Assembly: GCA_963723515.1 (NCBI GenBank)
Contig: CAVRQT010000003.1
Span: 640,001 to 704,000 of the forward strand
Reading direction: 5' to 3'
DNA length: 64,000 nt
Source: Vulcanimicrobiota bacterium
Lineage (GTDB): Bacteria; Vulcanimicrobiota; Vulcanimicrobiia; Vulcanimicrobiales; Vulcanimicrobiaceae
This document shows positions 40,175 to 44,222 of this stretch, piece after piece. The position numbers and the translations under genes are program-made. Each line of letters starts with the position of its first letter. Position 1 is the first letter of the stretch. The notes below the pieces were generated by a model. The model saw nothing but the letters and a program-made list of their open reading frames with translations. It was not told where the DNA came from and ran no database searches.

Positions 40175-41147
40175 ATGGTCGAGAAGCGGTTGCGGATCGG
40201 AATCACCGGCGCCGGCGCGATGGGAACGCTCTTCGGCTACCATCTCGCGCAGCTTTGCGATGTGACGATGTTCGACCAGAATGCGGCGTTGCTCGAGTGC
40301 ATCAAACGCGATGGGTTGCGCGTAAACGACACACCCGCGCGTTCAGTCGCCGTTGCACGCACGGTAAGCGATCTCTTCGGCTCGTCGATGCTGTTCTTGT
40401 TCGTCAAAGCTGTCGATACGTTGCGCGCGCTGCGTCCATTTGCAGGACAACTGAATCCCGCTACGCCGGTTGTCTCTTTGCAAAACGGCATCCGTAACGA
40501 GAGTGCGATCAAGGCCGCACTGGGTGGAGCGGTTCCGGTTGTGCTTGGAATCACAACGGAGTCTTCGCTGAGCACTGGACCGGGTCAGGTGCATAGTCCA
40601 CGCAGCGGTCACACGATTGTCGGTTCAGGAGGCGCTGCGCCCGAGACATCGCAACGCGTCGCGCAGCTGCTTTCGGCGACCGGCTTGCGGACGTCCGTCG
40701 TCTACGATATTCGGCCGCACCTGTGGGGCAAGCTCATCGCCAATACGGCGATCAACGCGCATAAGCGCGCTGCTCGACTGTCCCGCGGGGGCGATCATTC
40801 CCGACGAAAACGCGACGCGGCTCGCGAAGGCCCTTGCGCGCGAGGCGGTTGCGGTTGCAACGCAATCGCGCATCAATCTGCCGTATTCAGATGCGTGGGC
40901 GTATGTAGAAGAAGTGATTGCGGTCGGCGCGGATTCGAAGAGCTCGATGGCGTTTGACCTTGAAACGGGCCATCCGACGGAGATCGATCATATCAACGGT
41001 GCGATCGTTGCGGCCGGACGCCGGGTCGGCGTGCCGACGCCGTACAACGAGGCAATCGTACAATTAATCAAAGCGCGGGAATCGATCGCAGCCGCGGTGC
41101 CATCACTGCCCACGGTGCCTCCCGTGGAGTCCGAGGCGTCGGCCTAA
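40175..41147 (+). CDS. panE: 2-dehydropantoate 2-reductase (frameshift near 40760)
   Basis: GAGAMG, SLQNG, WGKLIANTAINA, then in a shifted frame SSMAFDL..G.PTEIDHINGAIV. Confidence 0.92.
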
Positions 41148-42900: not shown

Positions 42901-42928
42901 ATATCACAGAATAACAGTTTCATGATAT
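42901..42928. other. dif-like 28-bp recombination site
   Basis: ATATCACAGAA-TAACAG-TTTCATGATAT: 11-6-11 layout with arms 8/11 inverted-identical, immediately upstream of the recombinase. Confidence 0.7.
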
Positions 42929-43125
42929 TCGCGCAAGAGGCGAAACGGACGAATGCTCTCCAAATGCAACGGAAACTCGAAAATGCTCTTCTACGCCTCA
43001 TGGAGAGCGTTCGTCCGTTTCGATCTGCGAATATCAAGAAACTGTAGAGACGAGGAGGTAAAACCATGCGCTGCGTTGTCCGAGAGCATGCGCCCGTTTC
43101 GATCTGCGAATATCATGAAACTGTA
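42914..43125. repeat. Three ~45-bp repeats containing one dif arm (one inverted, two direct)
   Basis: A 42914-42962 (inverted), B 43001-43046, C 43082-43125; consensus GAGAGCRTKCGYCCGTTTCG..GCGAATATCAWGAAACTGT. Confidence 0.85.
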
Positions 43126-43247: not shown

Positions 43248-44222
43248 ATGGTGTTCTCAGCAAGCCTCCTTAGCAAACGGCGTGGGTTTGGCGTTACGCT
43301 GGCATTCATAGTTGCCTGCGCCGGGTGCGGTGGATCGAATCTGACTTCGCCGATCCTGCGCCCAAAGCCGACCCCTTTGGAACGCGCCTATGTCGTGAAC
43401 AGCGCCCCGCCGGGTTCTAGCGGGGATGTCTTTGGCTACGACCTCCCGCTGGCAGCATCAGCGCAGCCGAGCGTCGACCTTAAATTTCAGAATAACGCGT
43501 TCAACCAGAACGCCTTGCCGACCGACGATTGCGGTGACCGGCACGGTAACCTCTACGTCATTCTGCCATCAGCGCATCAATTGACCGGTGGTCCGCTCGA
43601 TGCGTACACGCCGCCGATCACGTCGTCGTCAACGCCGGCGTTTACACGGAACGACGACAACTTTGAACATTGCGCCACCGATCCAAACGGCGATCTCTTC
43701 GTAACCACGCGATCGTTCATTGTCGTTACGCTCGGCGGTCTCGACGTTTTACGGGCACCTGTATCGACGACATCACCCTTGAAGGTAATCTTTCAAATTG
43801 TGGCTGGTCCGCCGTTGTTCGAATTCGTCGGATCGGTGACGGCCGATGCCGCCGGCGACGCTTTCATCACCACCAGCATTGGAATCCAAGAATGGAATAT
43901 GAGCGGCAAGCTGCTGGCGACCTTCGGCACGACGGGACTAGGCAGCCTCGCGATTGGCCCCGACGGCAATCTTTACGTGCCGAATGGCGGAATTGACGTT
44001 TACAAGCCGGGCGGCTTTCACAACGGCGGCGTCAAGGATCACACGATCGGCCTCGGTGCGTTCAATGCATTCAACGTGGCGTTCGACGATGCGGCCAATA
44101 TGCTCGTTCTTGGAAGCACATCGGCGGGAACACCGGAACTCCGCGTTATTCCGCCGCCGTACACAGCGGTCAACTTCTTGCTGCGCGTCATGGGCGACAA
44201 CGGGCTGGCAATAACGCCGTAA
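43248..44222 (+). CDS. Secreted/lipoprotein with beta-propeller-like repeats
   Basis: Lipobox-like CAGC; repeats D..GNLYV, DPNGDLFV, GPDGNLYV, AFDDAANM. Confidence 0.75.
   Translation: MVFSASLLSKRRGFGVTLAFIVACAGCGGSNLTSPILRPKPTPLERAYVVNSAPPGSSGDVFGYDLPLAASAQPSVDLKFQNNAFNQNALPTDDCGDRHGNLYVILPSAHQLTGGPLDAYTPPITSSSTPAFTRNDDNFEHCATDPNGDLFVTTRSFIVVTLGGLDVLRAPVSTTSPLKVIFQIVAGPPLFEFVGSVTADAAGDAFITTSIGIQEWNMSGKLLATFGTTGLGSLAIGPDGNLYVPNGGIDVYKPGGFHNGGVKDHTIGLGAFNAFNVAFDDAANMLVLGSTSAGTPELRVIPPPYTAVNFLLRVMGDNGLAITP

Follow-up and report, generated by a model that had tools for sequence, protein, structure and literature searches.

Inverted one-arm copies of dif recur upstream of a lone xer gene in a class of Vulcanimicrobiota

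Two single-recombinase modules have been described, XerS/difSL in streptococci and lactococci and XerH/difH in Helicobacter and Campylobacter (PMC5357621, excerpt). XerH contacts the central region of its site only sparsely (PMC5241119, excerpt). On the hairpin substrate of CTX phage, Xer swaps a single pair of strands with short homology, ligation after exchange requires pairing right beside the cleavage site, and a further exchange there would yield a linear, covalently closed chromosome (PMC3442271, excerpt). Inverted repeats at the terminus are known from Lactobacillus delbrueckii ssp. bulgaricus, where they measure 38-76 kb, include the whole dif and go back to one ancestral event (PMC5345009, excerpt). 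Here we describe a dif-like site beside a single xer gene in a Vulcanimicrobiota bacterium, together with inverted copies of one half of that site. The window, the whole stretch of DNA that was analyzed, is 64,000 nt long, and coordinates without a locus name are window positions.

Table 1. Features of the xer-dif region and its repeat copies.
Feature	Position	Strand	Remarks
Xer-family tyrosine recombinase, 312 aa	41938..42876	-	TIGR02224 300.8 bits, TIGR02225 268.4 bits
dif-like site, 11-6-11, ATATCACAGAATAACAGTTTCATGATAT	42901..42928		assigned from uniqueness, conservation and skew position
dif, xer-proximal arm R	42901..42911
dif, spacer	42912..42917
dif, xer-distal arm L	42918..42928
Copy A: arm L with its outer flank, plus four spacer bases	42914..42962	+	template form
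A-B hairpin loop, 38 nt	42963..43000		holds AGAAGAG at 42986-42992, minus strand, pointing at dif
Copy B, inverted half-site	43001..43046	+	arm 43031-43041, spacer bases 43042-43045, no second arm
Unique 35-nt spacer between B and C	43047..43081		no other genomic copy; unrelated to the loop
Copy C, second inverted half-site	43082..43125	+	arm 43110-43120, spacer bases 43121-43124
Probable secreted NHL/SBBP-type beta-propeller gene, divergent	43248..44222	+	variable neighbour, not shown to be cargo

The xer gene was the sole Xer-like gene detected in the assembly, in which only one other PF00589 match occurred, a weak one at a contig edge. Its scores against TIGR02224 and TIGR02225 were both under the models' cut-off. 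At 312 aa against about 355, and with 129.8 bits against a XerS-model cut-off of 267, the protein falls outside the XerS family, and the XerH model was absent among its profile matches. An orthologue was present in 238 of 259 genomes, in a survey at a cut-off of 1e-50, which a divergent paralogue could escape (control run). All five single-contig relatives had one strong TIGR02225 match (246-279 bits) with every other at or below 86 bits; five Bacteroidales genomes, by contrast, gave two or three Xer matches each. The relatives are titled Vulcanimicrobiota or Eremiobacterota. Genome G042 holds a tandem pair of Xer-like genes (G042:C14:4682-7196).

The dif-like site is an imperfect palindrome 24 nt upstream of xer. 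It was unique in the 2.11-Mb, 88%-complete assembly even when up to 7 mismatches were allowed. Near xer orthologues the dif arms were conserved and the spacer was variable, and a pattern for two dif types had a single match in each of 69 of the 385 class genomes and none in the controls. The cumulative GC skew of the contig peaked at 43333, about 400 nt from dif, on a curve that is flat for about 50 kb and for which a two-line fit sets the break about 29 kb further on. FtsK is present in the genome. On these sequence features, namely position, uniqueness and conservation, 42901-42928 is identified as the chromosome's dif, part of a terminus-located xer-dif module with a single recombinase.

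The spacing of the module differs among relatives, with dif about 910-920 nt upstream of xer and an apparent gene in between in L003 and L010, and a gap of about 2.4 kb in genus g47. In a second dif type (L009, L014, L133-L148 and others) the distal arm contains TATCCACA, which we take to be DnaA-box-like; 55 of 56 loci of this type had no inverted half-copy, and the sole match was weak. Elsewhere in the window, a ketopantoate-reductase-like gene at 40175-41147 seems split over two overlapping frames, which appears to be a frameshift or sequencing error.

A sequence-only reading of the window had proposed that one dif arm with its outer flank (A) recurs twice in the opposite orientation (B and C), and the positions and orientation of all three copies proved right. 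B and C (43003-43046 and 43082-43125) are direct repeats of 44 nt with 91% identity and a period of 79. Copy A matches them in inverted orientation in two blocks, 42914-42932 (19 nt, 95% identical to B and 100% to C) and 42941-42962 (22 nt at 95% to B, 20 nt at 90% to C), parted by an 8-versus-4-nt indel that the earlier reading missed and of which B and C share the 4-nt form. Both half-sites do end inside the spacer, with four of the six spacer bases matching before the sequences diverge. The 38- and 35-nt stretches between copies are indeed unrelated (no detectable similarity, shuffle p = 0.44), and A and B do fold back on each other, giving a 136-nt hairpin of about -42 kcal/mol as DNA. The 241-nt repeat region folded with z = -6.7 against 200 shuffles, and an Rfam scan of it returned only three sub-threshold miRNA hairpin matches.

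No copy of the repeat was found elsewhere in the 2.11-Mb assembly, and a REP/MITE or CRISPR-like repeat was rejected for want of dispersed genomic copies. An assembly artefact is unlikely because of the divergence between B and C and because 26 further loci, from separate assemblies, show this layout too. In L046, a close relative whose Xer is 91% identical, the proximal flank is like that of A and not of the B/C form, and copy A would accordingly represent the ancestral template. Copy C is probably a tandem duplicate of B from a later event, because it shares the 4-nt indel form of B.

We examined 197 loci, of which 182 had a recognizable dif and 160 were distinct, one genome supplying two. 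Excluded from the counts were 76 metagenome loci that were distant or lacked upstream DNA (L050-L125) and two Bacteroidales chance matches. The metagenome scan comprised 80 loci and contributed one close relative with upstream DNA, L046, which ends 62 nt above dif, too short to reveal copy B. The sample was non-random, as it consisted of the best-scoring Xer matches and included 46 of the 91 genomes of genus g59. Copies were called at an identity of at least 12/14 to each locus's own arm L plus three flank bases. The class had 42 such inverted arm-L copies in 27 of the 160 dif loci, all within 300 nt upstream (47 kb scanned), and no direct-orientation copies at the same threshold; the next 147 kb upstream and 36 kb on the downstream side were free of them. 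Lowering the threshold to 11/14 gave 46 copies in 30 loci, over a background of 3-4 matches per category. An arm-R version of the scan gave 13 upstream matches in eight loci, which we take to be the arm-L copies seen again, because the arms are quasi-symmetric and the copies follow L where the arms differ.

Carriers span seven genera and one metagenome contig, with 20 of 46 loci in g59 and single loci in g1 (this genome), g5, g35, g58, g82 and g83; there were no carriers in g47 (0 of 16), g33 (0 of 10) or 30-odd smaller groups. Copy number varied among relatives from one to three, in line with the sequence-only reading, and arrays were present in 11 carriers. The add-on is dispensable, because most loci (131 of 158) lack half-copies. 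A quick Xer tree of 86 rows, with 30 carriers at 11/14 and L046 scored as a non-carrier, gave 15 gains or losses, at least nine of them forced by well-supported branches. Seven genomes marked as unpublished (G059, G029, G235, G236, G257, G261 and G284) served only as non-carrier denominators, two of them also in the tree, and six more of this kind entered only the Xer tallies; no positive claim rests on any of these. As a control, 21 XerC/XerD-type dif loci of Bacteroidales, which are AT-rich and noisier, showed no adjacent-arm hairpin with spacer bases. Three of those 21 (L337, L372 and L378) have an extra XerD-type arm 40-100 nt off, on the XerC side of dif, two of them direct and one inverted.

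The anatomy of the copies was assessed after detection by the arm only, at 9/11 or better, which gave 46 copies in 30 loci, one of them probably chance, and one background match. Identity to the local dif was 37-44 of 46 at the four flank bases and 39-46 along the arm, except for one arm position at 29, the conservation of the arm being partly inherent in the detection threshold. At spacer positions 1-4 it was 31, 28, 36 and 27 of 46, and at the next three 4, 0 and 1; among the 29 nearest copies those three positions matched 2, 0 and 0 times against about 6 expected each. An exact end at spacer position 4 in all copies would be too strong a claim: 4 is the mode only (17 of 46 ungapped, 21 with one extra A), and no match run reaches position 5. 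Fifteen of the 46 had no ungapped spacer-base match, or eight when one extra A was allowed. Some copies do carry an extra A between the arm and the spacer bases, which would break the register of exchange and leave binding intact. Behind the 30 nearest copies the best match to a second arm was 3-6 of 11. The best-kept block, four flank bases plus arm, is about the site of one monomer, and the arm has been retained amid intergenic DNA that has diverged around it. Copies lay 15-16, 23-25, 35-48 or 102 nt from dif, and neither these distances nor the array periods showed obvious helical phasing, as judged by eye.

Where arms L and R differ, the nearest copies followed L at 65 arm positions, R at 11 and another base at 4; at arm position 7, the copy had the R-arm base at 10 of 18 informative loci. 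In the 15 long-loop loci of g59, copies were closer to the dif of their own locus than to that of a congener (p = 0.0006 for the arm and 0.0002 for the flank), and in its seven short-loop loci the same tracking gave p = 0.24 for the arm and p = 0.03 for the flank, kin not being independent. Spacer type was tracked between lineages (p = 0.003, seven non-g59 loci, kin again not independent), and within subclades, where the spacer hardly varies, p was 1.0. With 20 of the 27 carriers in one genus, all of these p-values overstate. In G160 the dif spacer has changed and the copy has not. We treat spacer identity as a mark of origin because the central region is contacted so sparsely by XerH (PMC5241119, excerpt).

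Together these data give good support to the view that B and C are fold-back duplications from the local dif and not foreign DNA. The end point of copying lies mid-spacer, where Xer exchanges strands, and the copies may arise from the processing of an Xer-engaged dif, either by transfer of one strand, for which 3-4 nt of homology would be required, or by a template switch halted at mid-spacer. We ascribe the mid-spacer boundary to Xer chemistry because ligation needs pairing beside the cleavage site and the central region is hardly read. After repair, the product would be an inverted arm that extends 3-4 bases into the spacer, which slippage could then duplicate, here C from B. The copies would be kept as extra binding half-sites for the same Xer, beside dif and the xer promoter region, where they might tune occupancy, autoregulation or the arrival of FtsK. 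Retention as half-sites is favoured because the block is monomer-sized, one position has the R-arm base and register-breaking insertions are tolerated, and an accessory binding array is the most likely of the functional readings. We put the probability of the full account, in which copies are made locally from dif by fold-back, retained because they offer Xer additional half-sites, and multiplied by slippage, at about 0.45.

Ranking close behind extra half-sites, though in itself doubtful, is a neutral reading of the same local origin, by which the copies would be repair by-products at dif, kept alike by template-switch correction and tolerated without SbcCD, a hairpin-cutting nuclease. This would fit the patchy presence of the add-on, its losses, the decayed copies found at the same offset in L230 and L245, and arrays that resemble slippage duplicates with unrelated periods. 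SbcD (TIGR00619) was found in 2 of 68 class genomes, both among the 42 non-carriers and none among the 26 carriers; its general absence permits hairpins and is common to carriers and non-carriers alike. This genome encodes Ku. Template-switch correction can hold inverted repeats perfect without selection (PMC5941160, excerpt), but it should lengthen the stem at both ends, whereas identity halts after spacer position 4. Plain copying does not predict the R-arm base at arm position 7, and retention of the arm amid diverged intergenic DNA also speaks against neutrality. A further reading, exchange on a cruciform, presupposes that three bound subunits are enough and that a branch point at 3-4 nt is favourable. 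It is conceivable, if improbable, that the A-B repeat extrudes as a mimic of an Xer Holliday junction, with the junction at spacer positions 3-4, two L arms opposite each other and one R arm; to the same slight degree we would credit the next step, in which the L-bound subunits carry out one pair of exchanges and so break the chromosome at dif, reversibly, to give two hairpin-capped ends. Less probable still is the wider proposal of a built-in cruciform with which a lone Xer would open and reclose the chromosome, a telomere-resolvase-like escape from dimers and catenanes with no synapsis of sister dif sites, arising repeatedly where SbcCD is mostly lacking. A cruciform does predict arm L only, inverted only and at short distance, identity that covers spacer positions 1-4 but leaves out 5-6, the lack of a second arm, and co-variation with the local dif. 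SbcCD is a barrier to hairpin ends, which are viable without it (PMC12624138, excerpt), and it was mostly not found in class genomes; the absence of SbcD, however, is not carrier-specific. Against the cruciform, 20 of 20 fetched carrier contigs run through dif with no stable linear form seen, the extra-A copies and G160 lose the required homology, and loops of 30-40 nt disfavour extrusion.

The remaining readings fare worse. The sequence-only reading had offered scars of an IMEX or CTX-type element with the neighbouring gene as captured cargo, or else a small invertible switch, and comparison did not support these ideas. A CTX-like scar left through a folded single-stranded attP is very unlikely and largely refuted. 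The geometry is like that of a folded attP, CTX likewise relies on short homology next to a single cleavage site, and extra direct dif-like sites in G015 imply that Xer-site insertions may occur in the group. A CTX attP, however, has two complete arm pairs and the half-copies have one arm, with no second arm behind it. The loop and flank of carriers are ancestral chromosome, common to non-carriers, and not element, because g59 carriers and non-carriers share the upstream gene, the dif-proximal flank and neighbouring genes. The 375 kb upstream of 20 carrier sites (within 20 kb of each) held no second dif and no tyrosine recombinase, and matches to half-sites there were at chance level only. IMG/VR gave 0 matches for two full-dif patterns and three near-identical ones for a 19-nt half-site, apparently in coding sequence and without dif context; a phage collection had no match, and a plasmid collection had one of 39 nt (E = 0.3) inside recJ. 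The supposed cargo, 43248-44222, has a host-like GC3 of 0.68 (xer 0.70) and no att-like site at its far end. A small switch flipped by Xer is barely credible: inverted sites do adjoin a tyrosine recombinase gene, but only half-sites are present, 14 of 15 long-loop loci, compared across species, keep the loop in the ancestral orientation, and in most loci just 15-48 nt part the arms. There is also a slim chance, marginally better than that of a CTX-like scar, that the repeat, once transcribed by read-through, shields dif and xer as an RNA terminator or attenuator. On the xer-sense strand G-T mismatches outnumber A-C (17 vs 7, p = 0.064), and the stem is followed by an A/U-rich run, but a single position, also R-like, accounts for 12 of the 17 G-T pairs, and the sense strand is the better folder in just 17 of 27 loci. 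Upstream genes in g59 are directed at dif about as often in carriers (14 of 20) as in non-carriers (17 of 26), the neighbour in the window is divergent, and a terminator scan over the repeats finds nothing.

The divergent neighbour had no Pfam or NCBIfam match for its product, and its Atlas features lay at 0.96-0.97 to clusters with NHL/SBBP shares of 13-48%, beta-propeller clusters that are common in this phylum. No homologue of it was found in the fetched loci; the next two genes past it were near xer or dif in 6 and 24 of those loci. In G015 (L380:1539, 3474; L381:11049), the two extra direct dif-like sites have different spacers and lie about 20-22 kb from the xer-linked dif. Genes between the G015 sites include SLT, LuxR-ATPase, TIM and Fic domains, with no integrase among the 18 ORFs scanned, and the extra sites are possible Xer-site insertions.

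Counts of GAAGAAGA were 44 versus 6 on co-directional genes and 3 versus 25 on head-on genes. Genome-wide (G000, contig C3), GAAGAAGA/AGAAGA was polar towards dif on both sides, whatever the coding strand, and GAAGAAGA is a candidate FtsK-orienting motif, a reading by FtsK being what we infer. AGAAGAG occurs at a similar offset in L046; across loci, AGAAG was enriched at distances of 50-125 nt upstream of dif, with CTTCT, its reverse, at 25 nt or less. By eye, a promoter-like TTGCGC-17-TATTCT overlaps dif on the minus strand at 42908-42936, several relatives (L004-L008, L017, L127) have TTG..-17/18-TATCAT, and the TTGCGC hexamer is missing from copies B and C. A sigma-70 consensus scan returned no promoter at threshold. 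The hexamers overlapping dif suggest that Xer may regulate its own gene.

A literature search that covered few subscription papers found no description of such add-ons or of a dif in this phylum. For a whole class of soil bacteria, the analysis defines the dif family and a module with a single Xer, along with a recurring feature, inverted one-arm copies that stop mid-spacer. Judged from its sequence, the add-on looks home-made and not phage-left, always on the same side of dif. Were the copies accessory sites, recombination at the chromosomal dif would, like that at plasmid sites, have partners acting in cis; as by-products, they would document an aberrant Xer reaction that is frequent, together with the point where it ends; and as a catalytic cruciform, they would link dimer resolution to hairpin-telomere chemistry.

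Compared with known systems, the module resembles XerS/difSL and XerH/difH in having one Xer, a dif that adjoins its gene, a terminus location and FtsK. Unlike XerS and XerH, its recombinase is an XerC/D-sized protein of 312 aa, nearer to the XerC and XerD models (300.8 and 268.4) than to XerS (129.8), and its site is 11-6-11 where difSL has 31 bp; for the XerS and XerH modules, the excerpted text mentions no inverted half-site add-on (PMC5357621). As in CTX-phi attP(+), inverted Xer sites about 90-100 nt apart are folded together, with homology beside one cleavage site, but attP1 and attP2 have both arms each and are phage-borne (PMC3442271, excerpt), whereas here there is one arm, chromosomal flanks and no element body. 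The cruciform would, like the telomere resolvases TelN, ResT and TelA, give hairpin-capped ends at the terminus; in contrast to those enzymes, the recombinase here is an ordinary Xer, the loops would be 3-40 nt of flank and not a folded spacer, and no linear form was seen. The repeats of L. delbrueckii ssp. bulgaricus are likewise an inverted terminus duplication that includes dif sequence and is attributed to fold-back synthesis (PMC5345009, excerpt), but those described here are 15-45 nt long, hold a half-site only, and have been gained or lost many times.
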